The position numbers were made by a program, and so were the translations under genes. A stretch of DNA of 64,000 nucleotides from a virus, in IMG/VR virus record IMGVR_UViG_3300044977_000034, positions 14,059-78,058 of that record. One strand, written 5' to 3'. Of the stretch, positions 4,361 to 40,601 are shown piece after piece (position 1 is the stretch's first letter; each line of letters opens with the position of its first letter). The notes beneath the pieces were generated by a model. The model searched no databases and was not told the origin of the DNA. It saw nothing but the letters and a program-made list of their open reading frames with translations.

Positions 4361-4402
4361 TACCGGGACGGGCGGCCTATCGCCCGAATCAAGGAGTCGA
4401 AT

Positions 4403-4921
4403 ATGAAAACGAAAACCTTCGATCGCCCGATCGTTGACTTGCAAGCGGCCCGCAAGGCCGCCGCCGAGCGCTTCTACGCCATCGGCATGGCGTGTCTGCC
4501 GGAAGGCTGGACCTACACCTTCCGCAAGGCGCTGAGCGGCCGAGCCTTCCTCGAATTGAAGCGCATCGAGGCGCCGAAGCCGGTGACCCGCAAGGCGCTC
4601 TACATCTGGCTGCATGAGTGCGCGCACGCTCACCTCCACGTCGGATCGCGCAAGACGCGGCACGTCGAGGAGATGGAGGCCGAGAAATGGGCGCATGAGA
4701 AGATGCGCGAACACGGCGTCCCGGTGCCGAAGGCGATGACCAAGCGCGCCAAGCGCTACGTCGCCCACAAGATCAAGCAGGCCCAGGTGCGCGGCGCGAA
4801 GAAGATCGACGCGGAGGCCAAGGCCTTCGCCGAGGGGTCATACGCCAAGGCCAAGGCCGGATCGCGAGGTCCCATCCTGCTGGAACGGCTGCTGAACGGG
4901 ATGTTCAACCGCCGCCGCTAA
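4403..4921 (+). CDS. Zincin-like (HEXXH) metallopeptidase domain protein, ImmA/IrrE- or SprT-like
   Basis: WLHECAHAHLH...EMEAE motif; GGAGTCGAA RBS. Confidence 0.65.
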   Translation: MKTKTFDRPIVDLQAARKAAAERFYAIGMACLPEGWTYTFRKALSGRAFLELKRIEAPKPVTRKALYIWLHECAHAHLHVGSRKTRHVEEMEAEKWAHEKMREHGVPVPKAMTKRAKRYVAHKIKQAQVRGAKKIDAEAKAFAEGSYAKAKAGSRGPILLERLLNGMFNRRR

Positions 4922-5005
4922 ACGAAAAGGCCGCCGCGCTGCGGATGCGCGGCGGCCCCCGTCTCGCCCACAGAAAGGGACTGGAGGTCCCAACAGGAGT
5001 CTACC

Positions 5006-5653
5006 ATGAAACACGCCGTCGCCTACTTCAGAACCAGCTCAGCCACCAACGTCGGCCAGGACAAGGATTCGCTCGCCCGCCAGGAGAGCGCCGTCCGCAG
5101 CTACGCCGCGCGCAACGACATCGAGATCGTCGGCGAATATTACGACGCGGCGGTCAGCGGCGCCGATCCGGTCACGCAGCGCGAGGGATTCAGCCTCATG
5201 CTCCAGCGCATCGCCAGCAACGGCGTGCGGACAATCCTCGTCGAGACAGCGAATCGCTTCGCCCGCGACCTGATGGTGCAGGAGACTGGCTGGAAGATGC
5301 TTCAGGATCTCGGCGTCGAGCTGGTCGCCGTCGATTCGCCCATGAGTTTCGTCGAGGACACGCCGACGGCGAATATGGTCCGGCAGATCCTGGGCGCGGT
5401 GGCCGAGTTCGATAAGGCGCTGACGGTCGCCAAGCTCCGGGGCGCGCGCGAGCGCATGAAGGCCAAGACCGGCAAGTGCGAGGGGCGGAAGAGCTGGGCC
5501 GAGATGGACCCGGCGATGGTCGCGATGGCGCGCGAGCTGCGCCGGTCCGGCAAATCGCTAAACGCGGTGCGCGTAGCCCTGGCGAACCTGGGCTATGTCT
5601 CCGCGAGCGGGACGCCGTTCACGCGATCGGTCGTTTCTCGGATGACCGACTGA
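5006..5653 (+). CDS. Small serine recombinase (resolvase/invertase family)
   Basis: AYFRTSS catalytic motif, DAAVSGA, R.G, ANRFARD, ILGAVAEF and a C-terminal helical DNA-binding region. Confidence 0.9.
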   Translation: MKHAVAYFRTSSATNVGQDKDSLARQESAVRSYAARNDIEIVGEYYDAAVSGADPVTQREGFSLMLQRIASNGVRTILVETANRFARDLMVQETGWKMLQDLGVELVAVDSPMSFVEDTPTANMVRQILGAVAEFDKALTVAKLRGARERMKAKTGKCEGRKSWAEMDPAMVAMARELRRSGKSLNAVRVALANLGYVSASGTPFTRSVVSRMTD

Positions 5654-5760
5654 AACAAAACTTGCAAAAAAATGGTTGACAGCAACGCCAACCCATCGAA
5701 ATATGCGCCTGCGGCGTTCGTGGTGGAACGCCGCAGGCCTAAAAGTGATGGAGAAGCGTT

Positions 5761-7092
5761 ATGAGTATTTCTGCGACTGATAAGCTACGCCTTTTGGACA
5801 ACGTAGACCAGCCTCCCGGCCTCAACGTCGAGATCGTCGACAAATTCGAGGCCCTCCAACCCGGCAAGGCGACTCTGAACAAGGCCCAAACGGCCCTGTT
5901 CGGCTCGGCCTTCCTGCAAGGGCGCAGGCTGCAATTCACGACCTCGATGCCGCTCGGCGATTACCTCAATGTCGTCAGCATGCACCGCGCCGCCAAGGGC
6001 GCGACCGTCGAGGAACTGCGGACCGCCTCCAACCGGACCAAGATCGCCGCGCACGAAAAGGCGATTCGGGAATATCTGGCCGACACTGCGTTCGTCAGCG
6101 AGAAATTCATCTTCCCGAATTTCATGCTGAACTACGGCAGCGCGTGGGACGAGGGCATGCCCAAGGCCAAGCTGACCTTGCTGGCGACCGATCCGGAAAC
6201 CCTGGCGTGGCCAGCGGTCTTTGAGACGGCGACCGGAACCAAGATGCCGGTCACCGACGGCGCGCACCGCACCGGAAGCCTGATCGAGCTGATCGCGAAG
6301 CATCAGAACAAGGCGGGCATCGGCGCGCTTCTCAGCAACTCAGTCGGGCTGACGATTGTCATGGAGGCATCGAAGGACGATGCCCACCAAGACTTCGCCG
6401 ATTGCGGTCGCGCGAAGCCGATCGCGGACAGCGTTCTGGCGACCTTCGACATGCGCAATCAGGTCGTCGCCTTCGCGCGCGATCTGGTGGGCTCAAGCCC
6501 GTTCTTGAGTCGGCATGTCGATGCGACGAGCGCCTCGGTCAACCTGTCGAGCAACTCGACCAAGGTCTGGTCGATGTCGGCGGTGCGCGGCTATCTCATG
6601 GCGGCGATTCCCACGGACAAGCCGTTCCTCGACATGACGGCGGCCGAGCGCGCGGCGGTCTTGCACGAGCATAAGAAGCCGCTGGCGGAGTACATGCACG
6701 CGGTCGTCGAAGGCGTGCCGATCCTCACCGATCTGGCGTCGGAGAAGCCCGACCAGACGCCGGGGGCCTTGCGCAAGCAGCGCGGCGGCTGCGTTCTCAT
6801 GCGCGGCGCCGGATTCGGCGTCCTCATGCGGGCCTACCGGCACGGCCCCGGCAAGACCGGAACGGCGAACGGCGCGATCGCGGCGGCGGTCGAGAAGCTG
6901 GCGGCGGTCGACTGGTTTGTGTTCAAGCCTGGAGTCGGCCAGCAGCCGCTGATGGACGGAGACGCCTACGGCTGGCTCAAGGAGAACGTGCAGCCAGCTT
7001 GGTTTGAAATGATCGCGGTCGATCCCGGCAAAGGCTCGTATCGGCTCAAGGGGACGAACGCTATGATCGACGCCGCGTTCGCCGCCCTCTAA
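5761..7092 (+). CDS. DGQHR/DndB-like domain protein
   Basis: FIFPNFMLN, VTDGAHR, 'HQDFADC..AKPI' motifs typical of the DGQHR/DndB family. Confidence 0.75.
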   Translation: MSISATDKLRLLDNVDQPPGLNVEIVDKFEALQPGKATLNKAQTALFGSAFLQGRRLQFTTSMPLGDYLNVVSMHRAAKGATVEELRTASNRTKIAAHEKAIREYLADTAFVSEKFIFPNFMLNYGSAWDEGMPKAKLTLLATDPETLAWPAVFETATGTKMPVTDGAHRTGSLIELIAKHQNKAGIGALLSNSVGLTIVMEASKDDAHQDFADCGRAKPIADSVLATFDMRNQVVAFARDLVGSSPFLSRHVDATSASVNLSSNSTKVWSMSAVRGYLMAAIPTDKPFLDMTAAERAAVLHEHKKPLAEYMHAVVEGVPILTDLASEKPDQTPGALRKQRGGCVLMRGAGFGVLMRAYRHGPGKTGTANGAIAAAVEKLAAVDWFVFKPGVGQQPLMDGDAYGWLKENVQPAWFEMIAVDPGKGSYRLKGTNAMIDAAFAAL

Positions 7093-7127
7093 CGGCAAGG
7101 GCGCGAGGGCAACCTCGCGCCCGCTCC

Positions 7128-8150
7128 ATGATCGTCCGCCTCACCCATATCGACGGCAAACTGCCGAATCTGGCTTTGATGAAAATCGCCGCCGAGCATC
7201 GCCGCCGGGGCGATACCATCGTTTTCACCAAGGACGTTGAGCGCGGCATGTTCGAGGCCGCTTACGATCGCGTCTACGGTTCAGCCATCTTCGCCTACGA
7301 CCACTCGCTCGCCCGCGTCGAGCGGTTCAAGGCCGCCTTCCCCGACGCCATCCTCGGCGGCACCCATAACCGAGCCAAGCCGATCACCGTCGAGGCGGTC
7401 CTCGGGATCAGCGAGACGGCGCCGGTCGACTATTCGATCTACCCCAAGTTCGACGGCTCCATCGGCTTCACCCAGCGCGGCTGTCGGCTGAAATGCGGCT
7501 TCTGCGTCGTGCCGAAGAAAGAGGGCAAGAACCGCACGATCGCGACGATCTTCGATATCTGGCGCGGGCACGGCCATCCGAAGCATCTGCACCTCCTCGA
7601 CAACGATTTCTTCGGCCAGCCGCGCGACCAGTGGGAGGCGCGAATCGATGAGATCCAGCGGGGCAACTTCATGGTCTGCCTCAACCAGGGCATCAATGTC
7701 CGGATGATCGACGACGTCTCGGCCGCCGCGCTCGCCTCAATCCATTATTGCGACGACAGCTTCACCCGGCGACGGCTCTACACCGCCTGGGACAGCCTGG
7801 GCGACGAGGAGCGGTTCTTCTCCGGCGTCAACACGCTGGAGAAGCACGGCGTGCCGCCGAGCAACCTTCTGGTCTACATGCTGGTCGGCTACGACAAGCG
7901 CGAGACCTGGGAGCGCGTCCTCTATCGCTTCGACAAAATGGTCGCGCGCGGCATCCGGCCCTATCCGATGATCTTCGGCGACCGGCGCCGCAAGCTGCCG
8001 CTGGGCGGCACCAACCAGCGGCTCGACGAACGCACGCTTTCCGAGTTCCAGCGCTGGGCCGTCGGCCGGTTCTACAACGTCTCTTCATTCGAGAACTACG
8101 ACGCGAGCAAGCGCGGCCCGACCGCGACCGACCAGATGAGCCTGTTCTGA
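7128..8150 (+). CDS. Radical SAM protein
   Basis: TQRGCRLKCGFC (CxxxCxxC), LLDNDFF, N-terminal PNLALMKI. Confidence 0.9.
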   Translation: MIVRLTHIDGKLPNLALMKIAAEHRRRGDTIVFTKDVERGMFEAAYDRVYGSAIFAYDHSLARVERFKAAFPDAILGGTHNRAKPITVEAVLGISETAPVDYSIYPKFDGSIGFTQRGCRLKCGFCVVPKKEGKNRTIATIFDIWRGHGHPKHLHLLDNDFFGQPRDQWEARIDEIQRGNFMVCLNQGINVRMIDDVSAAALASIHYCDDSFTRRRLYTAWDSLGDEERFFSGVNTLEKHGVPPSNLLVYMLVGYDKRETWERVLYRFDKMVARGIRPYPMIFGDRRRKLPLGGTNQRLDERTLSEFQRWAVGRFYNVSSFENYDASKRGPTATDQMSLF

Positions 8151-8419
8151 TGCCTGGATTCTGGATGTTCGAGACGAGCGGCGTCCTGCGGCCCGCGATC
8201 GAGGCCTATCTGTTCACGCGCGGGCCGCTGACCGACAAACAGGTCGCGGCGATCAGAGTTTACCTTCGCCAGTGGATCGCCGGACCCTGGCACGCCGCCC
8301 CAGGCGCCGAGGCGCGCGTGCTCGAACGGCTGCGCAGCATGGTCGACCAGCTCGACGACCGGGCGAAGATCGACATCTGGCTGATGCAGGCGAACAGCAT
8401 CGATATCGATCCGCTCTAG
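8150..8419 (+). CDS. Hypothetical protein (MPGFWMFETSG...)
   Basis: TGATG coupling to the radical SAM gene. Confidence 0.65.
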   Translation: MPGFWMFETSGVLRPAIEAYLFTRGPLTDKQVAAIRVYLRQWIAGPWHAAPGAEARVLERLRSMVDQLDDRAKIDIWLMQANSIDIDPL

Positions 8420-8895
8420 CCGCCAAGCTTGACGAATTTCACCAGATCCAGCGGGCACGCGAAATTGCTCTCGACGTTGCCGGTATTACTGACCGGGCAC
8501 GTTCTGATGTACCACTCGTCCGAGGTGCGCTCCTCCACGATCGCGGCTGCGCCCAGGTCGTCGCTCACGCTCACCCAGGCGAAGACGTCACCGATCGCGC
8601 GCCGAACCGAATCCACGCTGGCGACGAAGACCTCGCGGTAGGGCCAATCCCTCCGGCCGGTGAAGGTCACCCCGAGCGTCTTGACCTCGATTCGGAGCCT
8701 CGGGCCGCCCTCTTCCCAGGCGAACACGTCGCCGTTGTCGCGGTAGTTCCTGTGCTCAGCCGCCGTCGGCGCCTCTCGGAGCGGCGGAATCGTGACCCAG
8801 TAGCCTTGCGAACTGAGCCAATAGGCGAAGGCCCACTGCCCACGCTTCGACCCGCGCAATCGGTCGAGGAATTTCGCATGTTGGCTGGTGCCCAA
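8416..8895 (-). CDS. Putative PD-(D/E)XK nuclease-like protein
   Basis: DNGD...IEVK motif; the annotated TTG start lies inside the tRNA 3' end. Confidence 0.55.
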   Translation of the reverse strand: MGTSQHAKFLDRLRGSKRGQWAFAYWLSSQGYWVTIPPLREAPTAAEHRNYRDNGDVFAWEEGGPRLRIEVKTLGVTFTGRRDWPYREVFVASVDSVRRAIGDVFAWVSVSDDLGAAAIVEERTSDEWYIRTCPVSNTGNVESNFACPLDLVKFVKLGG

Positions 8896-8961
8896 GGAAG
8901 GGATCGAACCTCCGACGCCCGCGCCTTCAACGCGGCGCTCTACCAGCTGAGCTACCTGGGC
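8886..8961 (-). tRNA. tRNA-Phe (GAA)
   Basis: 76-nt cloverleaf: GCCCAGG/CTTGGGC acceptor, GCTC/GAGC D-stem, CCGCG-TTGAAGG-CGCGG anticodon arm, GGAGG-TTCGATC-CCTTC T-arm, encoded CCA. Confidence 0.95.
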
Positions 8962-11282: not shown

Positions 11283-11739
11283 CTATCAAAACCGGATTCC
11301 GCGCCAAAGGCCGCAACGCCTTCTCCAGCTCAATCAATTGCGGCACGCTCAACCTTGTCAAATCCGGCCCGCGCTCCTCGTCCGCCTTCGGCGGCGCCCA
11401 GATCGGTCCGCCCCTCCGCTCCAGCCAAAACTTGTTCATGCTCGCGTCCGCCTGACGCCAGTTCTTCTCCGGCCCTCCCGTCGCCATCAAATACGCCGCC
11501 TGCGCGACCTCGTTCGTCCGCTTCGCTCCCCCCTTCATCATGAAGTCCTTGTACTTCCGGTACAGCCGCTCCGCGCTCAACCCCGTCAGCAGCGAGATCT
11601 CTTGAGGCGTCAGACCGTTCGCCGACATCTGCTCAACGCTCGCCTCCATCTCCTTCGCCTGCTTCTCTCGCTCCGCAAGCTCCTCCGTGCTCAGCGCCCG
11701 CGATCGCCGCGCCCTCGGCTTGCCCGCTTCTGCCATCAC
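11158..11739 (-). CDS. Probable terminase small subunit
   Basis: HTH-like GLTPQEISLLTGLSAERLYRKY and FWLERRGG; immediately upstream of and overlapping terL. Confidence 0.65.
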   Translation of the reverse strand: MMAEAGKPRARRSRALSTEELAEREKQAKEMEASVEQMSANGLTPQEISLLTGLSAERLYRKYKDFMMKGGAKRTNEVAQAAYLMATGGPEKNWRQADASMNKFWLERRGGPIWAPPKADEERGPDLTRLSVPQLIELEKALRPLARNPVLIDAQVESTQSRGGGQRVDAAGAGDLVDGGDGVDVVGEGEVPR

Positions 11740-12257
11740 TCGCCCTCATCATCCGCCTGGGGAGACCGAACACTGCGCAATTGCTGAACCGCAACCGGCA
11801 AACTCGACCCCCCATCTCCAGCCAACCGTACTTGGCTCGCCGGTAGCGAAATCCGCCGCATCGGACGCAAAACCGGCACAAAAATCACAGTGTCAAACCC
11901 CAAATGATAGAGCGCCAAAAGATCAACCTCATCCGACGTCAGCAACCTGTTCACATATCTCCCGCCACCAATCGACCGCTGCTTCGCAAGCTCCCAAGTA
12001 CACCGCTCCTTCAGCCCACCTTGATGGTAGTCACTCGTCGACTTCACATCCACACGATAAGACCGCCCCTCATAATCCAAAATAATGTCAAACCCTATCG
12101 TGTCTACATGCACACAGTAATGCCCCATCTTCGTCAAAAAAGCGCAAACCATAAACTCAGCATATCGCGGAAGTCGAGGAAACTTCTCAGCCTCAACTTC
12201 AGCAGAACTCGAAACGTCTACAATATTGCCAAATAAATCCTTCACTTCTCCCATCAC
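11736..12257 (-). CDS. PD-(D/E)XK endonuclease, possible free-standing homing endonuclease
   Basis: AEFMVCAFL...GFDIILD...RVDVKST; low GC. Confidence 0.7.
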   Translation of the reverse strand: MMGEVKDLFGNIVDVSSSAEVEAEKFPRLPRYAEFMVCAFLTKMGHYCVHVDTIGFDIILDYEGRSYRVDVKSTSDYHQGGLKERCTWELAKQRSIGGGRYVNRLLTSDEVDLLALYHLGFDTVIFVPVLRPMRRISLPASQVRLAGDGGSSLPVAVQQLRSVRSPQADDEGE

Positions 12258-12573
12258 ACATCTCCATTACGCTAATACTACACGGGGCAACCCATATTTT
12301 TGCCTCGTGGTTATAGGCTTAAAACTTTCCGACCAGCACTCCCCCCCCACCCTCCTGGCACCATTACGGCACCCTATCGGCACCGTTGCGGCACTGAATA
12401 CGCCCCTGGCAGTGGTGCAGAACGCCATGCGTTCTACGCCTGTCTCACAATCCGAAGATAGCGAGCGCGCAACGCCTGGAGATGCCCGCAATTGCTGGGC
12501 TTTCCGGGCCATGCGGTTGACCGGAGGCGGCGCTGCGCGGAAACCAGTTGACCGAGCGCGAAACCGGGCCGCA

Positions 12574-12987
12574 GGGACGCCCGACGCGCGCCGCGCGACA
12601 ATCAATCTTCGCATCCGGAGGAGGGAACCGGCGGGGAAGTGATCGAATCGTCGATCGCTGGCCGCTGCCCTCATGAACGTGAATGCAGGCTTTAGCGGCG
12701 GGACGAAGAAAGGGTTTGCCCAACGGGACGCGCAGCGCCCTTTCTTTGTCCCGGCGTGGGGACATTAGCGGGACAAAGGGCATCATTATTGACGTTTTCT
12801 CGCGGCGGAGCGCTAATGTTTGAACGCCTGGGGCCTGGGCGCTGCGGGACCTCGCTTAAACCGGGCGCTAGTCGCGCCCGCGCTCCGTCCCTTGGCCGCT
12901 ATGGGCTGGTGGAATGTGGCGGGGGGAGGGGGGATAGGGGGGAACCGTCACAATACTTGTCAAGAGGGACATGGCGGATAGCGGGAC
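12574..12987. repeat. GGGAC repeat cluster 1 (10 copies)
   Basis: Copies at 12574, 12700, 12725, 12748r, 12759, 12770, 12846, 12887r, 12966, 12983. Confidence 0.7.
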
Positions 12988-13092
12988 GGAATTGAAAATT
13001 TAATGTTTGAGGTGGGGCAAGCCACTGATTTGACTACCTCGCATTTTATGCAAGATTGGCCTTCAGACGCTCACAGAAGGCCGCTGGCGAGC

Positions 13093-14100: not shown

Positions 14101-14376
14101 GTCCCTGGCTTGTCCCGTCTCAGTCCCGCCTGTTTAAGCGTGTCCGAGCCGAATCGACGCGCGGGACACGCGCGGGACATTGTGCAAGCATTCCGCCCGG
14201 AATTGCTCAGGTCGAGAGGGACAAGCGCGGGACGCAACCAGCCCTATGTATATAAAGCGTGCAAAAAGCGTCGTGATGGCGACGAAAACCTCTTGACCGC
14301 GCGTCCCGCAACGATCATATAGAGGGACATGCGCGCCGCCTACGGCGCCCCAAAAGAGGAGTCGAGATCATGTCCC
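14101..14376. repeat. GGGAC repeat cluster 2 (10 copies, several 11 bp apart)
   Basis: Copies at 14101r, 14112r, 14123r, 14163, 14174, 14218, 14229, 14303r, 14324, 14372r. Confidence 0.7.
14293..14365 (+). promoter_or_regulatory. Early promoter, CCUA-loop hairpin and GGAGTCGA box
   Basis: TTGACC-17-CATATA; GCGCCG-CCTA-CGGCGC hairpin; GGAGTCGA at 14358. Confidence 0.7.
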
Positions 14377-14608: not shown

Positions 14609-14671
14609 AGGCGAAACGCGATCGGCTATTGGCCGATCGCGTCCTGGCGTGAGGCGCCAGCTGACGAGCCT
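14609..14671 (+). ncRNA. Type II hammerhead ribozyme 1 (predicted cleavage after C14643)
   Basis: AGGC-GAAA-stem III hairpin-GUC-CTGGCG/TGAGG/CGCCAG-CTGACGA-GCCT; complete catalytic core. Confidence 0.92.
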
Positions 14672-14701
14672 ACCGTCTGCCATCCAACCGGAGTCGAATC
14701 C

Positions 14702-15118: not shown

Positions 15119-15300
15119 TGACCAAGTGGATTGTGACCTATCCCGGCATCACTCAAGACCTAACCCGCGCCTTCGACAACGAGTCGGAGGCCAAGCAATT
15201 CGCGCGCGTCCGCCGGGATCGCGAACTGCATATGTGGCGCCATGTCCGCCTTGAACGGACCGAGGACAATTGCGTCACCATGATCCCGGTCAAGTTCTAA
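15115..15300 (+). CDS. Early hypothetical protein
   Basis: ATGA coupling. Confidence 0.7.
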   Translation: MMTKWIVTYPGITQDLTRAFDNESEAKQFARVRRDRELHMWRHVRLERTEDNCVTMIPVKF

Positions 15301-15365
15301 GGCGAAACGAGGAGGCCCGTCAGCGGGCTTCCTTGTCGCGCGGTGAGGCCGCGCCTGATGAGCCT
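15300..15365 (+). ncRNA. Type II hammerhead ribozyme 2 (predicted cleavage after C15337)
   Basis: AGGC-GAAA-13-bp stem III-GUC-GCGCGG/TGAGG/CCGCGC-CTGATGA-GCCT. Confidence 0.93.
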
Positions 15366-15383
15366 AACCAACAGGAGTCGAAT

Positions 15384-16002: not shown

Positions 16003-16098
16003 ATATAAAAACGGTTGCCATGTTGACAAGTTTTGCAGTCAACGCTATCTGAGAGGGGCGCGGCGCCTACCGCGCCCCTTAACTTTTTTGGAGTCGAA
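16003..16098 (+). promoter_or_regulatory. Early promoter, CGCCUA-loop hairpin and GGAGTCGAA box
   Basis: TTGACA(16023)-17-TATCTG. Upstream ATAAAAACrGTyGCCATGTTG is shared with the 18.7-kb promoter. 10-bp hairpin at 16054-79. Confidence 0.75.
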
Positions 16099-17011: not shown

Positions 17012-17035
17012 TTCAATCCTGAGAGGAGTCGAGCA

Positions 17036-17266: not shown

Positions 17267-17328
17267 GGGCGAAACGGCGGCCGAGCGATCGGCCGTTGTC
17301 GCGGCGTAAGGCGCCGCCTGATGAGCCT
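17267..17328 (+). ncRNA. Type II hammerhead ribozyme 3 (predicted cleavage after C17300)
   Basis: GGGC-GAAA-stem III with GCGA tetraloop-GUC-GCGGCG/TAAGG/CGCCGC-CTGATGA-GCCT. Confidence 0.93.
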
Positions 17329-17343
17329 AAACAGGAGTCGAAA

Positions 17344-18672: not shown

Positions 18673-18765
18673 AAATAAAAACAGTCGCCATGTTGCCTCT
18701 TTTCGCATAGCATGCCATATCAGGACCGGGCGGCGCCTACCGCCCGGTTTTCTTTTGGAGTCGAA
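18673..18765 (+). promoter_or_regulatory. Early promoter, CGCCUA-loop hairpin and GGAGTCGAA box
   Basis: TTGCCT(18693)-17-CATATC; ACCGGGCGG-CGCCTA-CCGCCCGGT; box at 18757. Confidence 0.7.
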
Positions 18766-18768: not shown

Positions 18769-18972
18769 ATGTCCCGTATTGGAATCCTGCGACAAGCGCG
18801 CCGCCTCGCGCGCATGCCCAACCCCGAGGCGCGGCTCGCCTCTCTCGATCGCATCGCAGCCATTCTTGAGAAGGCCTGCGAGCGCAATGCGCGCCAACGT
18901 GCGCTGGCTAAATTCCAGCCGCGCGTCATCCCCTCAAAGCGCATCTACACGCGCAAAGGGAGGCCGCAATGA
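18769..18972 (+). CDS. Small basic hypothetical protein
   Basis: GGAGTCGAA RBS. Confidence 0.65.
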   Translation: MSRIGILRQARRLARMPNPEARLASLDRIAAILEKACERNARQRALAKFQPRVIPSKRIYTRKGRPQ

Positions 18973-19313
18973 TCACGATCACGCAAGAGGGCGGCCGGTA
19001 CGTCGCCCGATTCGCTTTCGACTACGCGACCAAGGATTTGGTGAAGGCGGCCGGATTCAGGTTCGACGGCGTCCGCAAAATCTGGTGGACCGACAAGGCC
19101 GAGATCGCCGCGCAAGTTTCGGCCGATCCTGGCGAGCTGGCGGCGCGTCTCAACGCCGAGCGGCAGGCGCAACATCAGGCTCGCGAGGCGTCAATTGTCG
19201 CATCGCACGCGACCGATGCCGCGATCGAGATTCCGGTGCCGCAGGGGCTCGAATATTTGCCCTACCAAAAGGCAGGCATCGCTTACGCGCTCCGAGTTTT
19301 CGGGGACCTCTGA
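18969..19313 (+). CDS. N-terminal part of a split SNF2/HARP-like helicase (HARP-like domain plus Q motif)
   Basis: F.Y..KDLVK..GFRFD...K.WW and C-terminal YLPYQKAGIAYA (SNF2 Q motif). Confidence 0.8.
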   Translation: MITITQEGGRYVARFAFDYATKDLVKAAGFRFDGVRKIWWTDKAEIAAQVSADPGELAARLNAERQAQHQAREASIVASHATDAAIEIPVPQGLEYLPYQKAGIAYALRVFGDL

Positions 19314-19696
19314 TGCCCGTCGCGATCGTCTGCGCGATTTGTTCGACGCAATTTTTTGTGGTGCCGAGCCGCGTCAAAAAGGGCGCGAAATATTGCAGCT
19401 ACGCTTGCCACCAGATTGGCGAGGGCCGCAAGGGCGGCACTGCCCGAGGCGAACAAGTCAAGCAGGCGAGCAAGGGCAAGACTTACACCAAGACCAAAGG
19501 GCGCCACACGCATCGTGTCGTCGCCGAGAAGGTTCTCGGGCGGCCACTGCGTCCAAAAGAAACCGTCCACCACGCGGACGAAAACATACTGAACAATGAC
19601 CCCGGCAACATCGAAGTCCTGCCGGACCAAGCAACCCATATGCAGAAGCATCGCAAAGCGCTGCTGGCTGCCAGGAAGGTGAAACATGGCTACTGA
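19313..19696 (+). CDS. HNH homing endonuclease with N-terminal Zn finger
   Basis: CAIC...YCSYAC; HRVVAEKVLGRPL...VHHADENILNNDPGNIEV; overlaps both neighbours. Confidence 0.88.
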   Translation: MPVAIVCAICSTQFFVVPSRVKKGAKYCSYACHQIGEGRKGGTARGEQVKQASKGKTYTKTKGRHTHRVVAEKVLGRPLRPKETVHHADENILNNDPGNIEVLPDQATHMQKHRKALLAARKVKHGY

Positions 19697-21341
19697 TGGC
19701 GTATTGATCGGCGACGAAATGGGATTAGGAAAAACAATACAGGCGCTTGGTATCGTCAATGCGGTTCCGAGCATTAAGTCGGTACTTGTTATATGCCCTG
19801 CCTCGCTAAAACTAAACTGGCTGCGCGAGGCCCAGAAGTGGCTTGTGCGCCCAGTGACAGTGGGCGTTGCTAATGGATCGTTTCCAACGACTGACGTCGT
19901 GATTGTCAATTACGACGTGCTGACCAAGTTCGACGCCCAGATCAAAGCGGTGAACTGGGACCTCGCGATTCTCGACGAATGTCATTTTGCCAAGAACGCC
20001 AAGGCGCAGCGGACTCAGGCGATATTCGGCAAGTGGGACGCTGAGACGAAGGCGTGGAAGGTCGCGCCGGTTCGCGCCGCGCGCCGCCTGTTTTTGACCG
20101 GCACGCCCATCCTGAACCGGCCAAAAGAACTGTGGACGATTGTCCACGCGCTGGACCGGCAAGGGCTGGGTGCCAATTGGAGGGCGTTCCACACTCGCTA
20201 TTGCGCTGGTCACCAGACCCGGCACGGTTGGGATATCGACGGCGCATCGAACCTCGCCGAGCTGAATAGCAAGCTTCGCGCGGCGTTCATGATTCGCCGC
20301 CTCAAGAGCGAGGTTCTCACCGAGCTACCGCCCAAGCGCCGACAGGTGATCGTGCTTGAGCCGTCGAAAAAGGCGCGCGCCCTGATCGAGCGGCAGAACG
20401 CCCTCGCCGATCGCGTCAGCAAGGCCAAGGAAGCCCTCCAGGCGTCGAAGGCCTCAGAGGACCCCAAGGCGTTCGAGGCGGCTGTAGCCGCCCTGGAGGA
20501 CGCCTCTGGGGCCGCTTTCGAGGAGATGAGCGCGCTCCGGCACGAGATCGCCCTGGCCAAGCTTCCCCAGGTCATCGAGCACGTTCGCGATGCCCTGGAC
20601 GGCAGCGAGGGCAAGATCATTGTTTTCGCCCACCACCGGGATGTGGTCGAAGCCCTGGCGAAAGAGTTTTCCGACGTCGGCGCCGTCAAGCTTATGGGCG
20701 GCGATAGCGCTGACGACAAACAGTCGGCGGTCGATCGCTTCCAGACTGATCCGAGCTGCCGCGTGTTTGTCGGTTCGATCAAGGCGGCAGGCGTAGGCAT
20801 TACTCTGACGGCGGCGACTCACGTTCTGTTCGCGGAGCAGGACTGGACTCCTGGCTGGAATCAGCAGGCCGAGGACAGGGCGCACCGCATCGGGCAGCGC
20901 GAGTCGGTGCTCATCCAATACGTGGTGCTCGACGGTTCGTTGGATGCGCACATTGCGCAAGTCAATGTCGATAAGGCGGCCATTGCCGACAAGGCGCTCG
21001 ACAAGCCGGGGGCCGCGCTCGTCGCGCTCGCCGAGTTGGTGACGCCACCGGCTCCCAAAGCCCCAGAGAGCCTCGTGGAGCCGCGTCCGGCCGCTCCGGC
21101 TCCCAGCCTAGCCCCGGAGGTCGTGGAGGCGGTCCACGCTGGTCTGAAGGTGATTGCGGGCCTATGCGACGGCGCCCAGGCGCTCGACGATCACGGGTTC
21201 AACAAGCTGGACAGCACGTTTGGCAAGAGCCTTGCGGCGGCGCCGTTCCTTTCGCCGCGTCAGGCCGATCACGGGCGGCGCCTCTGCATCAAGTATGGGC
21301 GGCAGCTCCCGGCCGATTTGCTGGCGACCATCAAAGGCTGA
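19686..21341 (+). CDS. SNF2-family helicase, C-terminal part
   Basis: DEMGLGKT, ILDECH, LTGTPILN, AAGVGITL, QAEDRAHRIGQ; Walker A starts at residue 10, with no Q motif. Confidence 0.93.
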   Translation: MATDGVLIGDEMGLGKTIQALGIVNAVPSIKSVLVICPASLKLNWLREAQKWLVRPVTVGVANGSFPTTDVVIVNYDVLTKFDAQIKAVNWDLAILDECHFAKNAKAQRTQAIFGKWDAETKAWKVAPVRAARRLFLTGTPILNRPKELWTIVHALDRQGLGANWRAFHTRYCAGHQTRHGWDIDGASNLAELNSKLRAAFMIRRLKSEVLTELPPKRRQVIVLEPSKKARALIERQNALADRVSKAKEALQASKASEDPKAFEAAVAALEDASGAAFEEMSALRHEIALAKLPQVIEHVRDALDGSEGKIIVFAHHRDVVEALAKEFSDVGAVKLMGGDSADDKQSAVDRFQTDPSCRVFVGSIKAAGVGITLTAATHVLFAEQDWTPGWNQQAEDRAHRIGQRESVLIQYVVLDGSLDAHIAQVNVDKAAIADKALDKPGAALVALAELVTPPAPKAPESLVEPRPAAPAPSLAPEVVEAVHAGLKVIAGLCDGAQALDDHGFNKLDSTFGKSLAAAPFLSPRQADHGRRLCIKYGRQLPADLLATIKG

Positions 21342-29505: not shown

Positions 29506-29955
29506 TTATTCGGCGGCGGCGGCATCTTCTTCGGGCGCCGGATCTTCCTCGCGCACCAGCTCATCGATGGGATCGCGCCGCTTCTTGCGCGGGCGCGGCG
29601 CGCTAGCCGTCCTGGCCGCATCCATGGCGGCCTTGCCGAGCGGGGAATCGGCGAACGTCCCGAGGTGGAGCTGGAGCCTGTCGAGGGCCGTCTGGGTGAC
29701 CTCGTCCAGCTCGTTTTCGAGCAGCTCCATCTTGCGCACATATTCGCGCTGCTTCACGCCCACCTTCAACGCTTTTTTGTCGAAACCCTTGGTTTTGACG
29801 GCGTCTTCGATGGTGTCCTTGATGGCTTCATGAAGGGGTTTGCAGCGGTTCATATAGAGGGATTTTTCGGCCCTCAGATCGGCCATGTAGCCTTCGATGG
29901 CGTGGACGACGTTTTCGGTTTCCTCTTGCGTCGGCCCATTCGGTCGCTCGGTCAT
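29506..29955 (-). CDS. GapR/DUF2312-like DNA-binding protein
   Basis: IKDTIEDAVKTKGFDKKALKVGVKQR resembles the GapR signature. Confidence 0.6.
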   Translation of the reverse strand: MTERPNGPTQEETENVVHAIEGYMADLRAEKSLYMNRCKPLHEAIKDTIEDAVKTKGFDKKALKVGVKQREYVRKMELLENELDEVTQTALDRLQLHLGTFADSPLGKAAMDAARTASAPRPRKKRRDPIDELVREEDPAPEEDAAAAE

Positions 29956-30179
29956 ACTGCCTCCTTGGCATCGGGTTTCGACTGGGAGGAGACAGCAAAC
30001 ATCAGATCGCTAATGTCGACTTCGCCCTCGGTCGCCTCAATGATTTTAATGAGGTTTTGGCGCTTGGGGATCGTCGCGCCCGAGAGCAGTCGATAGATCG
30101 TGGTTGGATGGACGCCCACCTTCGCCGCGAATTGCTCGGGATTCATTTCGTGGCTAGCTAGATATTCGCTCAAGCGCAT
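29952..30179 (-). CDS. Cro/C1-type HTH regulator (probably leaderless)
   Basis: MRLSEYL...FAAKVGVHPTTIYRLLSG..IP...IIEATEGEV; TTGCAT-16-TATCGT ends 6 nt before the ATG. Confidence 0.88.
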   Translation of the reverse strand: MRLSEYLASHEMNPEQFAAKVGVHPTTIYRLLSGATIPKRQNLIKIIEATEGEVDISDLMFAVSSQSKPDAKEAV

Positions 30180-30185
30180 CCGCCT

Positions 30186-30251
30186 ACGATAGCGCGAGTT
30201 GCGGTCGATGCAAATTCCCACTTGCTTCTCATCTTGCAGATCGTGCAAGAT
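30186..30251. promoter_or_regulatory. Divergent control region with two operators
   Basis: TTGCGGTCGATGCAA (30199-213) and TTGCAGATCGTGCAA (30234-48). Confidence 0.7.
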
Positions 30252-30407
30252 TGAGTCGCCCATCGATCAGCGGTTCGGCCGATTCGAGCGCTGTCGTCGG
30301 GAACGGCAAGCGAAGTAGGCCGCTAAGGCGCGCGCCAACCGCCGATCGGTCCACGGGAGGTCGGGGGGCGGCCCCAGTCAGGGTCGTCCCCCGCAGGAGT
30401 CGAAAAC

Positions 30408-32716: not shown

Positions 32717-33965
32717 GTCGAGGGATCTCACGATCGCGCAAGACCTTGGCCACAGGTTGCCTCAGTTCGAGGCCGCGCTGACCGGGACCGGCGTCGATCC
32801 CAAGCGGTTCATCCGAGTGGTGATGACGGCCATTAACATAAATCCGGACCTCCTCGCTTGTGAAAGGCGGTCTTTAATGAACGCGGCCATGCGCGCCGCG
32901 AGCGACGGTCTCGTGCCGGACGGAATCGACGGCGCCCTGGTCCCATTCGAGGGCAAGGTCACATGGATGCCGATGATCGCGGGCATCCGAAAGAAGGTCC
33001 GCCGGAGTGGCGAGGTGACCAGCTGGGACGTGACGGCGGTCTTCCAAAAGGATCGCTTCGACTACGAGCTGGGCGACGATCCGTTCATCAAGCACAAGCC
33101 CTACGATGCGCCGGAGCTGCCGCGCGCCGACGGCGAAGCCGATGAGGATTACAACCGGCGGCTGCGCAAACATCTCGACCACGGACAGCTGACCCACGTC
33201 TATTCGGTCGCGAAGATCAAAGGCGGCGACAAGTCGCGCGACGTCATGACGCGGGCCGAGGTCGAGCTGGTGCGCGATAGCTATGCGCGGAAGAACAAGA
33301 AGGGCGAGTTCTCGCCAGCCTGGAGGAAATCGTTCGCTGAGATGGCGAAGAAGACGATCGCGCGGCGGCACGCCAAGCAGCTGCCGATGTCCACGGACAT
33401 CCTGGCTTTGCTCTCTCGCGATGATGACCTATATGATGTGGACAGAGAGCGCGCGGACCGCATTCAAGCGCCCAGCGTGCTCGATGACCGCCTAGAGCTT
33501 CTCGTCGGAGTCGATCCTGAGACTGGCGAATTTGGTTCTGCTGAAGGGGTGTCGACTCCCCCATCGCAGGAACGCGCGGCCCCCCATGACATCTCCGGAG
33601 TAGGCGCCGGGGACGAGGGGGCCGCGCAACATCTCGAATCCCGAGCGGTGATCCCCGCCGCTCCGGATGGCGCGGCGGACAGGGGCTCGCAGCCGACCGC
33701 CGCGCAGCCCGAGCTGGCGACTACCGCACTAGAACCCAGCTCGCCAGCGCCACCGGGAGTCTCGCAAACCCCCGCACCAGCTCCCGGTGGTACTCCCCGC
33801 GATCTCCTGACGCCGCCGGTCGAGCAGCGCGGCGCAGACATGGCCAAAAGAGGTAGGCCGGAGCTGGAGCGCTGGGTGAACGAATTGCCGCCCGATGAAA
33901 TGGCGAAGATCTCCCTGGCCCAGCTCAAGGCATGGCGCGGCGTCGCCGACAAGGTGGCGACCTGA
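32703..33965 (+). CDS. recT: RecT-family single-strand annealing protein
   Basis: RFIRV, LLAC...SLM.A...A...GL.P, LVPF, F.YELG, EMAKKT. Confidence 0.9.
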   Translation: MMATESRDLTIAQDLGHRLPQFEAALTGTGVDPKRFIRVVMTAININPDLLACERRSLMNAAMRAASDGLVPDGIDGALVPFEGKVTWMPMIAGIRKKVRRSGEVTSWDVTAVFQKDRFDYELGDDPFIKHKPYDAPELPRADGEADEDYNRRLRKHLDHGQLTHVYSVAKIKGGDKSRDVMTRAEVELVRDSYARKNKKGEFSPAWRKSFAEMAKKTIARRHAKQLPMSTDILALLSRDDDLYDVDRERADRIQAPSVLDDRLELLVGVDPETGEFGSAEGVSTPPSQERAAPHDISGVGAGDEGAAQHLESRAVIPAAPDGAADRGSQPTAAQPELATTALEPSSPAPPGVSQTPAPAPGGTPRDLLTPPVEQRGADMAKRGRPELERWVNELPPDEMAKISLAQLKAWRGVADKVAT

Positions 33966-34913: not shown

Positions 34914-34954
34914 AACCAACCGGGCCGCCTACGGCCCCTCGGGGGAAGAGTCGA

Positions 34955-35275
34955 ATGAGTGGACGAGCGAAGTGGTCGCTTGCGCAGCGTTTTTGGGCGC
35001 ATGTCGATATTCGGGGGCCAGACGAATGCTGGCCGTGGATGGGCTGCAAGCCCGACAGATATCCATTCTTCCGGGCTGGAACGAAAGCTTATCACGCCTC
35101 TCGCATCGCCTTCATGCTCGCGACCGGGCGGTGGACTGATTACTTGCGGCACTCCTGTGACTATCCGCCGTGCGTCAATCCCGGCCATCTGGTCGAAAGT
35201 ACTCATGCCGAGAACGTCGCCGACATGTACGCGAAGGGGCGCGATCGTTGCTGGGGATGGGGGGTAAGCCGATGA
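34955..35275 (+). CDS. HNH endonuclease (His-Cys type)
   Basis: RFWAHV...CWPWMG, ASRIAF, RHSCDYPPCVNPGHL...ENVAD. Confidence 0.88.
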   Translation: MSGRAKWSLAQRFWAHVDIRGPDECWPWMGCKPDRYPFFRAGTKAYHASRIAFMLATGRWTDYLRHSCDYPPCVNPGHLVESTHAENVADMYAKGRDRCWGWGVSR

Positions 35276-37907: not shown

Positions 37908-37934
37908 AATGTCCTTCTACGCGAAAGGAAAACC

Positions 37935-38585
37935 TCAGAACGCGAGACGCTCCTTGGCGCGCCTGTGCAGCCCGAGCAGGCTCAGCAAGCCGAAGCCGAG
38001 CACCAGCATGGCCCAGGTCGAGGGCTCCGGAACGCCGGTCACCAACTGAACCGAGCCGCCGAACGACTGCCTCGGCGCCGTGAAGTCGATGGCGAATTGG
38101 GCCTCGTCCGAGGTGAACGCGCCAGCCGCCGCCGAAACCGGACCAAAGGAGCCGTCGAGCAGCGTGGCTGGGAACGTGTGCGTGGCGAGCAGCCCGCCAT
38201 CGGCGAAGGTCCGCTCGGTCGTCGGGCCTGGATCGTTGGTCAGGCCGTTGACCGTGAAAGTTGACAGCGTGTTCCCTGTCCCCGTGATGGCGCTTTGGAT
38301 GACGTCGATCGTCAGCTCGTGCGAGCCGCTGAATCCCGCCGCCGCAGTGGCGTCGAGCGTCACGGCGGAGAGGTCCGCCTTGGGCAGAATCGGCGAGCCT
38401 TGAGCGTTGATGGTGATGTTGGCGAAGTTCGCGTCGTTGGCCGTGAGGCTCGCCGCGCCGGTCGTGATCCCCGTGATGTTGTCGATCAAGGTTCCGTTGT
38501 CGAACACCTCGATGCTCAACGTCGCCTTGGCCGGACCCGCGCCGATCGCCGCGAGAACCGCCGTAGTCAGTAGCAATCTATGCAT
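37935..38585 (-). CDS. PEP-CTERM (PEPxxWA-CTERM) surface protein
   Basis: Signal peptide (…AGPAKA), Thr/Gly-rich body, VPEPSTWAMLVLGFGLLSLLGLHRR tail. Confidence 0.9.
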   Translation of the reverse strand: MHRLLLTTAVLAAIGAGPAKATLSIEVFDNGTLIDNITGITTGAASLTANDANFANITINAQGSPILPKADLSAVTLDATAAAGFSGSHELTIDVIQSAITGTGNTLSTFTVNGLTNDPGPTTERTFADGGLLATHTFPATLLDGSFGPVSAAAGAFTSDEAQFAIDFTAPRQSFGGSVQLVTGVPEPSTWAMLVLGFGLLSLLGLHRRAKERLAF

Positions 38586-38770: not shown

Positions 38771-39469
38771 TTACCGCTTGGGCTGTCGCTCCGGAGGCGT
38801 CGGCAACGGCTGGCCTGGAGCCGGACGGCTTGGCGGCAGGCCTTGGCCCGGACGCGGCGGAATCCCCGGCCTAGTCGGCGGCAGGGGTTGGCCTGCGGTC
38901 GGGGGACGGCCCGGTCGGCCGCCGGGGAGGCTTTGGTCGGGGTGCTCCTCGCCAACGCCATAGTCAGGATCGGTCGGCCGCTCCGGCCGCACCGGAACAT
39001 CGATCACCGCCCACCGCGAGCCGACGCCCGAAATAAAGATCACCGCGAGCGCCTTGCCCGGAGGGACGCTCGGAGGCAGCGGCGGCCAGACGGAGCCCGG
39101 AGGCAGCTCTGGAAGACCGGGAGGAACCTCCGGCGGCAAGCCCTGATCGGGACTCTCTGGATCGATCGGGTAGACCGGGAGCTGACCCGATTCGGCGCCT
39201 TCATCTACGCCATAACCCGGATCGCGACCGCCCCAACCGCCCCACGAACCCGGAGGACGATTGCCCGGATGCTCGCCGCCGCCCCAACCCCAGCCCGGAT
39301 CGACCGGACGGCCAGGACGACCGGGCAAATGGCCGGGACGCTCGGGACGGCCGGGAAGCCCGCCGCCGATTTCAGCGCCTTCGTCAATGCCATAGTCGGG
39401 GTCGACAGGGCGCCCCGCGTGATCAAAGTGAACTGGTTGAAGCCAGACTAACTGCTTTCCTCGTGCCAT
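38771..39469 (-). CDS. Pro/Gly-rich repeat protein
   Basis: AGGAG RBS; repeats RPVDPDYG/RPVDPGWG/RDPGYG/PTDPDYG and P.Q.LP. Confidence 0.7.
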   Translation of the reverse strand: MARGKQLVWLQPVHFDHAGRPVDPDYGIDEGAEIGGGLPGRPERPGHLPGRPGRPVDPGWGWGGGEHPGNRPPGSWGGWGGRDPGYGVDEGAESGQLPVYPIDPESPDQGLPPEVPPGLPELPPGSVWPPLPPSVPPGKALAVIFISGVGSRWAVIDVPVRPERPTDPDYGVGEEHPDQSLPGGRPGRPPTAGQPLPPTRPGIPPRPGQGLPPSRPAPGQPLPTPPERQPKR

Positions 39470-39540
39470 GCGTTTCTCCTTCTTGGGGTTCGCCTCTCCC
39501 TTGTGCGCCTTGGCGGTAGCACGAATCGATGACGGGCGGG

Positions 39541-40536
39541 CTACCACTTGATGATTTTCATCGTGCAAGTTGTGGGCTGGATGTTGTTGTGGGCGCCCGA
39601 GCTGCCCGCAGGGGCGAGGTTAGCGTAGCCGGTTCCGATATAGACGCCGCTGGCGGACGCGCCCCCGGTGTTTGCAGCGCTTTGAGAGACAGCGCCAGTA
39701 CTGGGGTACGTCCCGCCATAAAGGGCGAAATTCGTCGCCTCGGTGTAGCCGTGGGTGTGGTTGTCCTGAGACGCGGCATGGCCATGGCCATAGTCGCCGT
39801 GGGTGTGGGACGGCATCTCGGCCGCCGACAACGTGTGATAGGCCTCGCCCGCGAAGGTCACCACGCCCCAGCTGTTGAGGATGCCCCGGTTGCCCTCGTT
39901 CTGGGCGTAAGGCCCCGAGGGAGGAACCGTGCCGATCTGGTCCGCCATCGCGGTCACCGTGCCGCGATAATCGGGGACCCTGAACGAGCCGCCGCTGACC
40001 CCCCAGGTCCCGCCGATGATGTCGTACAGCAGATCATGCTGGGCCTGACTCACATATCGGCCGTCGCACGGCAGCCAGCCGTTGTGGATAAAGGTCGTCG
40101 GCATATCCGCCACCGTCCCCGGAGGGCAACCGGCGTAATCCCAATAGACCCGGCTCGGGGTGACGATGATCGGATAGGGGATGCCGAAGCTGGTGAAGAA
40201 ATAAATCCCGATCTGGTCGTTGAAGTTGTTGCCGCGCACATAGAGCGCGTGGCCGTTGAGGTTGATCCCCTGAATGACGATCCGGCGACCTCCGATCGGC
40301 GGGTAGCTGATGTACTGGTCGCTGCTCAGCGTGCCGGTCAGATAGAGGATCGGATTGGCGGCCTGGGCGATGGTGAGTTCGATCGTTCCGCCTGAACACG
40401 AGAGGACGTACTGCCCGCCATACGCCGTGTCGAGCGTATTGAGCGAGCCATCCATAGGGGTGTCCCAGCCGGTCGCGGCGTAGTCTCCATGAGCGGGAAT
40501 TTCCAAACTTAAGTTAGGTGTAAAAGTGCTAACCAT
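39541..40536 (-). CDS. Tail-collar domain (short tail fibre) protein
   Basis: GWLPCDG..VS....LLYDIIGGTWG...FRVPDYRG, HTLSAAEMPSHTH, HNNIQP...IIK. Confidence 0.85.
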   Translation of the reverse strand: MVSTFTPNLSLEIPAHGDYAATGWDTPMDGSLNTLDTAYGGQYVLSCSGGTIELTIAQAANPILYLTGTLSSDQYISYPPIGGRRIVIQGINLNGHALYVRGNNFNDQIGIYFFTSFGIPYPIIVTPSRVYWDYAGCPPGTVADMPTTFIHNGWLPCDGRYVSQAQHDLLYDIIGGTWGVSGGSFRVPDYRGTVTAMADQIGTVPPSGPYAQNEGNRGILNSWGVVTFAGEAYHTLSAAEMPSHTHGDYGHGHAASQDNHTHGYTEATNFALYGGTYPSTGAVSQSAANTGGASASGVYIGTGYANLAPAGSSGAHNNIQPTTCTMKIIKW

Positions 40537-40551
40537 CGGTATTTCCAGATC

Positions 40552-40601
40552 TTGCAGTTCGTGCAAAAAGCGCTATATTTGGGCGGCCTACAGGAGTCGA
40601 A
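40552..40601 (+). promoter_or_regulatory. Operator-overlapped promoter with GCCTAC and GGAGTCGAA box
   Basis: TTGCAG-16-TATATT; TTGCAGTTCGTGCAA. Confidence 0.7.

Follow-up and report, generated by a model that had tools for sequence, protein, structure and literature searches.

A candidate start-associated ribosome-binding box at the early-strand genes of a phage clade from IMG/VR

Among the described elements that precede phage genes, the closest to the one treated here are the start-associated sequences (SAS) of Cluster K mycobacteriophages, 13 nt long and present in 11–19 copies, located 3–7 nt before mostly ATG codons, in one orientation, in front of non-structural genes and with conserved letters that do not pair (PMC3203893; 2025 survey PMC12699233). 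They contain the Shine-Dalgarno (SD) core, stand before unrelated gene families, often together with a second upstream element, and neither a function nor a reader has been assigned to them (PMC3203893, PMC12699233). Three other systems share part of this layout. The target of T4 RegB/S1 is 11 nt long, with GGA plus a downstream consensus, single-stranded and located in the SDs of early mRNAs, and RegB inactivates in this way one temporal class of mRNAs (PMC1702504). In T4-type phages, small repeated PeSL cassettes made of a sigma-70-like early promoter and a stem-loop lie beside non-essential ORFans of variable regions, and modular shuffling between related phages has its breakpoints there (PMC2839356, PMC4122927). 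The stoperators of Cluster A mycobacteriophages are 13-bp asymmetric, orientation-dependent repeats found in short intergenic spaces (PMC3203893). Here we describe a box, GGAGUCGA(A), that lies directly before start codons in a 64,000-nt stretch of viral DNA (the window), corresponding to bases 14059–78058 of the 78,058-bp IMG/VR record IMGVR_UViG_3300044977_000034 (63% G+C, 100% complete according to CheckV).

The 15 sites of the window all fit the pattern (G/A)GAGUC(G/U)A, are all located on the + strand, and in all of them the distance from the end of the 9-mer to the ATG is 0–4 nt (Table 1). Every site listed by a first-pass annotation, made from the letters alone, was found to be present, including the one at 34947 where AGAGTCGA overlaps the start codon and the variant GGAGTCTAC at 4996. 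The window contains 24 copies of the heptamer GAGTCGA, of which 20 are on the + strand and 4 on the − strand; dinucleotide shuffles gave 12.5 ± 3.6, and none of them reached 24. The complete GGAGTCGAA is found in the whole record 10 times forward and 0 times in reverse, with 0 also for the reversed-pattern control. An ATG lies within the next few bases at 14 of the 20 + strand copies of GAGTCGA (background 0.13, binomial P ~7e-9).

Genes were called with a codon-usage model trained on long open reading frames (ORFs), so that the counts per class are approximate: of about 22 + strand genes preceded by a gap of at least 20 nt, 15 have the box, while it is found at none of about 24 + strand genes that overlap or are coupled to the gene before them and at none of the 65 − strand genes, the replication operon and all the virion genes included. 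The first-pass annotation had proposed a start-associated repeat, absent from − strand starts and marking the first gene after a promoter, ribozyme, hairpin or other gap and not the coupled genes, and these counts agree with it: the box is restricted to one gene class and far beyond chance. The − strand and late genes have AGGAGG, GGAGG or AAGGAG sites at varied spacers, and therefore translation in this host does not depend on the box. The sole − strand GAGTCGA next to an ATG (11195) falls within the terminase ORF and was not conserved among the relatives. In these the box also heads a few small genes of the opposite strand, which makes the rule specific of gene starts and not strictly of the strand. 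The box-led ORFs look like real genes, several of them conserved in relatives or matched to a family (ArdC-like, serine recombinase, HNH endonuclease), and they have no SD other than the box, the last G of GGAG being 4–11 nt from the ATG. At the level of sequence, these data establish the box as the predicted ribosome-binding site (RBS) of the independently initiated early-strand genes, with GGAG as its SD.

We searched IMG/VR for relatives using the helicase, the primase and a pattern made of the hammerhead tail (see below) plus the box, and found at least seven further box-bearing genomes and many fragments. Six of the genomes (G001, G006, G007, G008, G009 and G010) carry 9–15 copies of GGAGTCGA on one strand and 1–4 on the other, with 0 for the reversed-pattern control. 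In another one (G011, primase 77% identical) GAGTCGA was found 14 times forward versus 6 for the reversed control, and about ten boxes are kept, some of them before GTG. The four complete relatives have ~78% nucleotide identity to this genome over ~60% of the length. The box is a trait of the clade.

The family as a whole has 99 copies of GAGTCGA, 75 of them with an ATG within a few nt and a few with GTG. To describe the unit we pooled the copies of GAGTCGA followed by ATG that differed at more than 10 of 50 flanking positions, which left 54 contexts. The base before the 7-mer was G in 48 of them and the base after it was A in 40 and G in 11, while two positions before the 7-mer there was A or U in 43 (with A directly before GGAG in 28). 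Outside a core of 9–10 nt the information content was ~0, with C mildly favoured at the two positions that follow the box. GAGUCGA and the ATG were 0 to 7 nt apart, most often 4. The unit is thus (A/U)GGAGUCGA(A>G), fixed relative to the SD and not to the start codon.

For an unbiased test of conservation, the orthologues of the box-led genes were located by tblastn, whether boxed or not. GAGUC(G/U)A was kept in 82 of the 118 comparisons of orthologous starts, against a neutral survival of a 7-mer of ~7% as calculated from the third codon positions of the same genes (68% identity). Most of the losses affected genes whose box overlaps the end of the upstream gene, such as the RecT-like one, or were drifted variants: at some core or coupled genes GGAGTCTA has drifted to GGAGTTTA, GAAGTCGA or GGAGTCGG. 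The variant at 4996, for instance, is the same GGAGTCTAC in G006 and G008 and has decayed to GGAGTTTA in G001 and G007, and at 21402 the AGAGTCGA form is common to the orthologues in G006 and G008. Two sites have vertically inherited leaders that could be compared over five genomes each, those of the ArdC-like gene and of the 30408 family. In both, the stems differ by compensated changes and the U run and the spacer vary as well, whereas the 8-mer is constant (the 8-mer at 30396 is kept in all four complete relatives over spacers of 1 to 3 nt). As the 8-mer stays constant while its flanks change, UCGA itself is under purifying selection. Conservation in related phages, which the first-pass annotation had set as a check, is therefore family-wide, with razor-sharp edges and a constrained UCGA.

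Beyond the clade the box was absent from helicase relatives at 45–52% identity and from the lineage of G012 (primase 53%, same G+C). One contig of the broader group (L020, IMGVR_UViG_3300032164_003159; helicase 47% identical, 52% G+C) has a box of its own, AACCGGGAGG, at the starts of 17 small genes within 16 kb; every one of them has its own TTGACA/TATAAT promoter, so that a promoter-leader-box cassette is repeated 17 times. Two others (L029 and L030) show AAGGAACCGAAAC at about five starts. Private start boxes thus recur in the broad group and are not the same in every lineage.

The SD function accounts for only part of the unit. The anti-SD tail GAUCACCUCC is conserved in 16S rRNA, and the U and C that follow GGAG face its C and A, so that UCGA gives two mismatches and then two pairs (as judged on the conserved tail). 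We have discarded an extended anti-SD pairing as the explanation of UCGA because its invariant U and C are mismatches; only GGAG pairs, as had been stated in the first-pass annotation, together with an A before it in 28 of the 54 contexts. A second candidate was a role of UCGA in keeping the SD free of pairing. The box had a predicted unpaired probability of 0.48, versus 0.40 for other starts and 0.44 for shuffled leaders, and among the 256 possible 4-mers after GGAG in the native contexts UCGA ranked 78 for the accessibility of the box and 187 for that of GGAG. The box is not unusually accessible and UCGA is no accessibility optimum, and this candidate was rejected as well. The same applies to CcrM/GANTC methylation or restriction sites (GAGTC, TCGA): there is no depletion elsewhere (observed/expected 0.82–1.17), and the excess of GAGTCGA comes only from the start sites.

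When compared with the SAS of Cluster K, which the first-pass annotation had rightly pointed to as the analogue (PMC3203893), the box is alike in being a short asymmetric repeat that contains the SD, located a few nt before the ATG in one orientation and in front of unrelated non-structural genes. Also alike is the invariance of letters (U5 and C6 of the box) that do not pair with the 3' end of 16S rRNA. The differences are as clear. The box GGAGUCGA(A) has 8–9 nt versus the 13 nt of GGGATAGGAGCCC and is extended only 3' of the SD; it does not match the SAS consensus GGGATAGGAGCCC even with up to 2 deviations, only GGAG being common. The phages are unrelated, here with a probably Gram-negative soil host, and the upstream partners are hammerheads and CCUAC hairpins here and 17-bp inverted repeats in Cluster K. 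By kind the box is a start-associated sequence; by sequence and lineage it does not belong to the SAS family.

The leaders upstream of the box were sorted by eye into types. In the first, located before 4393, 14358, 16090 and 18757, a sigma-70-like promoter is followed by a GC hairpin with a GCCUA(C) loop. A promoter scanner confirmed only 4332–4360 among the promoter-like sites of this type, and flagged at 16053–16080 a terminator-like hairpin plus U run, with the promoter-like site seen by eye upstream of it unflagged. Terminator-like GC hairpins with a U run are indeed located between the promoter-like site and the box at 16053–16089 and 18722–18756 (+), and their stem covaries between genomes; one of these two leaders contains UUAACUUU, a sequence that is also that of the 'epsilon' enhancer of T7 gene 10. 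The second type, before 40593, is very short and lies behind a TTGCA-N5-TGCAA promoter/operator. The third consists of putative type II hammerhead ribozymes ending in CUGAUGAGCCUA, directly upstream of the boxes at 14690, 15374 and 17334. Rfam finds 2 of these 3 hammerheads below its gathering score of 37 (24.7 and 23.9 bits, E 0.14–0.22), with the core complete, and the pattern 'CTGAYGAGCCTA ... box' gave 14 IMG/VR stretches from about 11 contigs. The remaining leaders have other hairpins. GCCUA was found 2–21 nt upstream in 33 of 71 distinct box sites of the five genomes versus 2.6% of random windows, so that more than half of the boxes are without it. Examples are at 4376–4380, 14340–14345, 16066–16071, 18735–18740 and 40586–40591, with CCUAC in G011; depending on the site the motif is the 3' strand of hammerhead stem II or the loop of a promoter-proximal hairpin.

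This arrangement resembles an engineered one. In RiboJ-type parts a self-cleaving hammerhead-type ribozyme cuts off the RNA that precedes it, so that a hairpin and a constant RBS remain and every gene has the same 5' untranslated region irrespective of its upstream context. The layout of (putative) hammerhead and constant RBS is found at three sites of the window and at many in the relatives. The difference is that here the system is natural, and that cleavage and insulation are predictions.

The same leaders stand before different genes. Comparing all sites between genomes we found 39 inter-genome pairs with a like leader and an unrelated gene. The 18757 leader, with its promoter, hairpin and U run, precedes three different genes across five genomes, the genes in four relatives being other than the one here; in relatives it also stands before an apparently intact SNF2 N-terminus. 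The 40593 leader precedes a different gene in each of four (this genome, G001, G007 and G008). The double hairpin upstream of the box at 18140 is found also in G008, before an unrelated gene. Conversely, in at least three pairs the same gene has unrelated leaders and the homology ends within the box or the spacer. The gene at 14702 follows a hammerhead in this genome and a promoter-hairpin leader in G001, and another gene, with its first 60 nt 100% identical between G006 and G008, is preceded by a hammerhead in one of these two genomes and by a double hairpin in the second. The four complete relatives have no orthologue for 9 of the 15 box-led genes found here, and most groups of box-led genes across the five genomes have a single member. 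Leaders and accessory genes swap with the breakpoint at the box because every leader type ends in the same box. The comparisons establish the box as a recombination joint for the plug-and-play exchange of accessory early genes, a role that the first-pass annotation had not considered. The pattern of like leader and unlike gene, with breakpoints between close relatives at the box or spacer, is that of PeSL cassettes. However, PeSLs are defined by promoter plus terminator; a sigma-70-like promoter with a terminator-like stem-loop was found here in a subset of leaders (4332–4360, 16053–16080 and 18757) and not in the hammerhead type, and the element common to all leaders, including the hammerheads without promoter, is the RBS box.

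Tentatively, we read the box as a start-associated ribosome-binding module, private to one clade of uncultured soil phages, that would act in the mRNA and be read by a trans-acting factor treating the class as a group, a reading that may well hold but that we stop short of calling probable. The box-led genes are those of the early, host-promoter-driven strand that have to engage the ribosome on their own. UCGA(A>G), which would move with the SD and not with the start codon, would form with GGAG a single unit of ~9 nt for a sequence-specific factor, most likely a phage protein. Early genes could then be switched, cut or boosted as a class in one go, leaving the late genes with AGGAGG-type sites untouched. 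The layout would fit by analogy the T4 RegB/S1 target, in which the GGA(G) of an early SD is also at the 5' end and a 3' extension is also needed; since that target exists, an SD plus 3' extension can be read. The extension recognized by RegB is degenerate and A-rich while UCGA is invariant here, and cleavage at the box would be a prediction.

Several points weigh against such a reader. The scan of about 80 proteins with PHROGs and Pfam detected no RNA-binding or RNase family, nor with either of them a RegB homologue or family; about 19 conserved small proteins have no annotation. The Cluster K analogue has been without a reader since 2011. The data are also compatible with a reader on the host side or with a host-wide motif. 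In addition, the sense strand of the RecT-like gene contains a copy of GGAGTCGAT (33507–33515), conserved in G001 and the only box-like 8-mer within a + strand gene; a nuclease that cuts boxes would need to avoid this copy or to tolerate it. The first-pass annotation had gone as far as a phage-wide translational regulon read by a protein, nuclease or antisense RNA. A reader of any of these sorts was not found, and 'regulon' is what we infer. In a wider version, which we regard as doubtful, the whole would be a built-in system of standard parts, with ribozymes or 5' hairpins that cut or cap the cistrons, the same 9-nt box on each of them, and a phage factor that reads GGAG and UCGA as a single word and turns the early/accessory set off (or on) after take-over, sparing the AGGAGG sites of the late genes.

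A dedicated reader may also be unnecessary. The box would then be the standard RBS part of the clade, used by the host ribosome only, and spread and kept uniform as the 3' end of recombining, mobile leader cassettes like the PeSLs, an explanation that is possible although we would not expect it to prevail. Accessory genes would be gained and lost by exchange at the box. The pairs with like leader and unlike gene or the reverse, the box-led genes without orthologue, the drift of the box at some core or coupled genes and the cassettes repeated 17 times in L020 are all in its favour, as are the RecE/RecT-like proteins encoded by the phage and the documented role of PeSLs in modular shuffling (PMC2839356). 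Against it, conservation stops at the 9–10 nt core, whereas gene conversion would drag the flanks along, and the 8-mer is constant in vertically inherited core sites whose flanks have changed. No preference of the ribosome is known that fixes U-C-G-A, and accessibility does not select it either. Besides, 9 bp are short for RecT-type annealing.

It is unlikely that the box copies, for the early genes of the phage, a peculiarity of translation initiation in the host (either an SD that is extended or interrupted, or a site recognized by some host factor). Early genes rely on a host machinery that is still unmodified, GGAG..GA.CC coincides with the perfect anti-SD complement GGAGGUGAUCC at 8 of 11 positions, and the C mildly favoured at two positions after the box points in the same direction. 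But the invariant U and C are precisely the mismatched letters, and the late and replication genes of the phage, expressed in the same host, never use the box. A search of the genomes of 185,579 bacterial species with the pattern of hammerhead tail plus box, which does not probe plain host RBSs, gave only 13 matches, all coding and about the number expected by chance, and no prophage or host.

Still less probable is that the box works in DNA, as an asymmetric site for a repressor or another DNA-binding protein that would block or time transcription through early units, in the manner of the Cluster A stoperators. Its asymmetry, its single orientation to transcription and its location in short intergenic spaces would suit such a site, and the phage encodes Cro/CI-type helix-turn-helix proteins (29952–30263), and some of the box leaders also contain a distinct TTGCA-N5-TGCAA operator. 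Stoperators, however, act in DNA via a repressor and have no fixed relation to SD or ATG, while the box is itself the SD, always the only one and at SD spacing. It is found also behind hammerheads inside operons, where the RNA is predicted to be cut just upstream, and its distance to the promoter varies widely while that to the ATG does not.

Pairing of the box with an RNA partner, be it antisense, a trans-acting ribozyme or the T-arm of a tRNA, is scarcely credible, and for phage-encoded RNAs largely refuted already: in this genome all the anti-boxes (exact or with up to one G-U pair) are the boxes' own opposite strand or coding sequence, the conserved enzyme strand of a trans-cleaving hammerhead with arms fitting GGAGUC/GAA (cut after the GUC of the box) was not found, and the T-arm, to a variant of which GGAGUCGAACC is complementary by direct reading, is buried in the folded tRNA. 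The exact anti-box 8-mer, for which only counts were taken in the four complete relatives, is there almost wholly the opposite strand of boxes, with 1–4 copies elsewhere per genome. As a phage-encoded RNA, the antisense reader of the first-pass annotation has to be dropped, with no intergenic anti-box in any of the five genomes and with the two candidates near 12038 and 12170 sitting in an AT-rich − strand gene. The T-arm complement that it had noted is not supported either: it needs a CC extension present at only about 1/3 of the sites, and the T-arm of the phage tRNA-Phe does not fit.

Table 1. Start boxes of the window with their leaders and genes, followed by other features mentioned in the text (positions are those of the window).
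Feature	Positions	Strand	Start codon and gene	Leader or remark
box GGAGTCGAA	4393–4401	+	1 nt before ATG 4403; 172 aa; no orthologue in four relatives	TTGCAA-17-TATAAT promoter, then GC hairpin with GCCTA loop
variant box GGAGTCTAC	4996–5004	+	1 nt before ATG 5006; serine recombinase/invertase	
box GGAGTCGAG	14358–14366	+	3 nt before ATG 14370; 78 aa; conserved in G006 and G008	promoter-like site, then hairpin with GCCTAC loop
box GGAGTCGAA	14690–14698	+	3 nt before ATG 14702; 138 aa	hammerhead-like element ending CTGACGAGCCTAC
box GGAGTCGAA	15374–15382	+	1 nt before ATG 15384; 94 aa	type II hammerhead (putative) directly upstream
box GGAGTCGAA	16090–16098	+	4 nt before ATG 16103; ArdC-like anti-restriction protein, 302 aa	
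box GGAGTCGAG	17025–17033	+	2 nt before ATG 17036; 76 aa; this genome only	
box GGAGTCGAA	17334–17342	+	1 nt before ATG 17344; 167 aa	type II hammerhead (putative) directly upstream
box GGAGTCGAA	18140–18148	+	3 nt before ATG 18152; 100 aa	
box GGAGTCGAA	18757–18765	+	3 nt before ATG 18769; 67-aa ORF ending 18972	heads split SNF2 helicase operon
variant box AGAGTCGAA	21402–21410	+	3 nt before ATG 21414; 82 aa	
box GGAGTCGAA	30396–30404	+	3 nt before ATG 30408; 162 aa; core gene	first of divergent + strand unit
variant box AGAGTCGA	34947–34955	+	runs into ATG 34955; HNH endonuclease, 106 aa; this genome only	
box GGAGTCGAA	36423–36431	+	2 nt before ATG 36434; 99 aa; this genome only	CCGCCTAC 5 nt upstream
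box GGAGTCGAA	40593–40601	+	3 nt before ATG 40605; 61 aa	TTGCAG-N4-TGCAA promoter/operator and CCTACA upstream
putative hammerhead	14609–14689	+		
putative hammerhead	15300–15373	+		
putative hammerhead	17267–17332	+		
SNF2 N-terminal fragment	18969–19313			
HNH endonuclease	19313–19696			
SNF2 core	19686–21341			
internal GGAGTCGAT	33507–33515	+		within RecT-like gene
DndB-like (DGQHR), radical-SAM and 89-aa genes	5761–8419	+		adjoin tRNA-Phe
tRNA-Phe	8886–8961	−		
AT-rich gene	11736–12257	−	173 aa	foreign composition
non-coding stretch	12260–13000			GGGAC repeats and inverted repeats
GapR-like protein	29506–29955	−	149 aa	
Cro/CI-type helix-turn-helix protein	29952–30263	−		
protein with PEP-CTERM motif	37935–38585	−	216 aa	

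The gene behind the box at 18757 starts at 18769, which corrects the first-pass annotation. In the operon that follows (18769–21341, + strand), the N-terminal fragment of SNF2 is coupled to the 67-aa ORF, and an HNH gene interrupts the helicase before its core (the split is read from the gene map). The window encodes in addition a large terminase, virion and tail-fibre proteins, a primase, a DnaB-like helicase, RecE/RecT-like recombination proteins, an ArdC-like anti-restriction protein and a single tRNA-Phe. No nucleotide-level match to it was found among GenBank phages, and the nearest cultured phages, at 29–43% protein identity, infect mostly Alphaproteobacteria (Paracoccus, Rhizobium, Rhodobacter, Aurantimonas). 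The conserved protein at 29506–29955 is GapR-like by eye (GFDKKAL motif), with a weak Pfam match (E 0.03), and the GapR family is typical of Alphaproteobacteria and their phages; a weak HEPN_Apea match on the same protein was discarded, as it is better read as a GapR-like DNA-binding protein. Its gene adjoins that of the Cro/CI-type protein, which heads the − strand replication operon. Because of the nearest cultured phages and of the GapR-like protein we consider that the host of this soil phage is probably an alphaproteobacterium. Among public sequencing reads no RNA run was listed as containing the sequence, and one soil DNA run had a small share of its words.

Other features of the window were recorded in passing. 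A PEP-CTERM sorting motif at the C-terminus of the protein at 37935–38585 (28.1 bits, cut-off 20.7) suggests that the host has an exosortase system. The DndB-like, radical-SAM and 89-aa genes next to the tRNA-Phe are likely a DNA-modification module and are missing in most relatives. The ~0.75 kb at 12260–13000, which come after the AT-rich gene, lack coding potential and are dense in inverted repeats and in repeats of GGGAC; they may represent an origin or some regulatory region.

For annotation, the box provides in these genomes a rule that marks the true starts of small ORFan genes. The clade that carries it is unrelated to Cluster K, and the element is shorter, with a sharply bounded core of 8–9 nt, is conserved in at least eight genomes, and is tied to hammerheads and to the exchange of cassettes. 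New with respect to the known elements are the 3' extension, short and with sharp limits, its coupling to hammerheads and the breakpoints that can be demonstrated at the box. UCGA can be altered without touching the SD or the spacing, which makes the question easy to test. If there is no reader, a fixed RBS would be the point at which these phages swap their anti-defence and take-over genes in a plug-and-play manner. If there is one, it would represent a new class-wide post-transcriptional switch and possibly a ready-made orthogonal pair of RBS and regulator. And if the box belongs to a system of standard parts, it would be a class-wide, sequence-specific translational operator, sharper than T4 RegA or RegB, for which different phage lineages would use different words.

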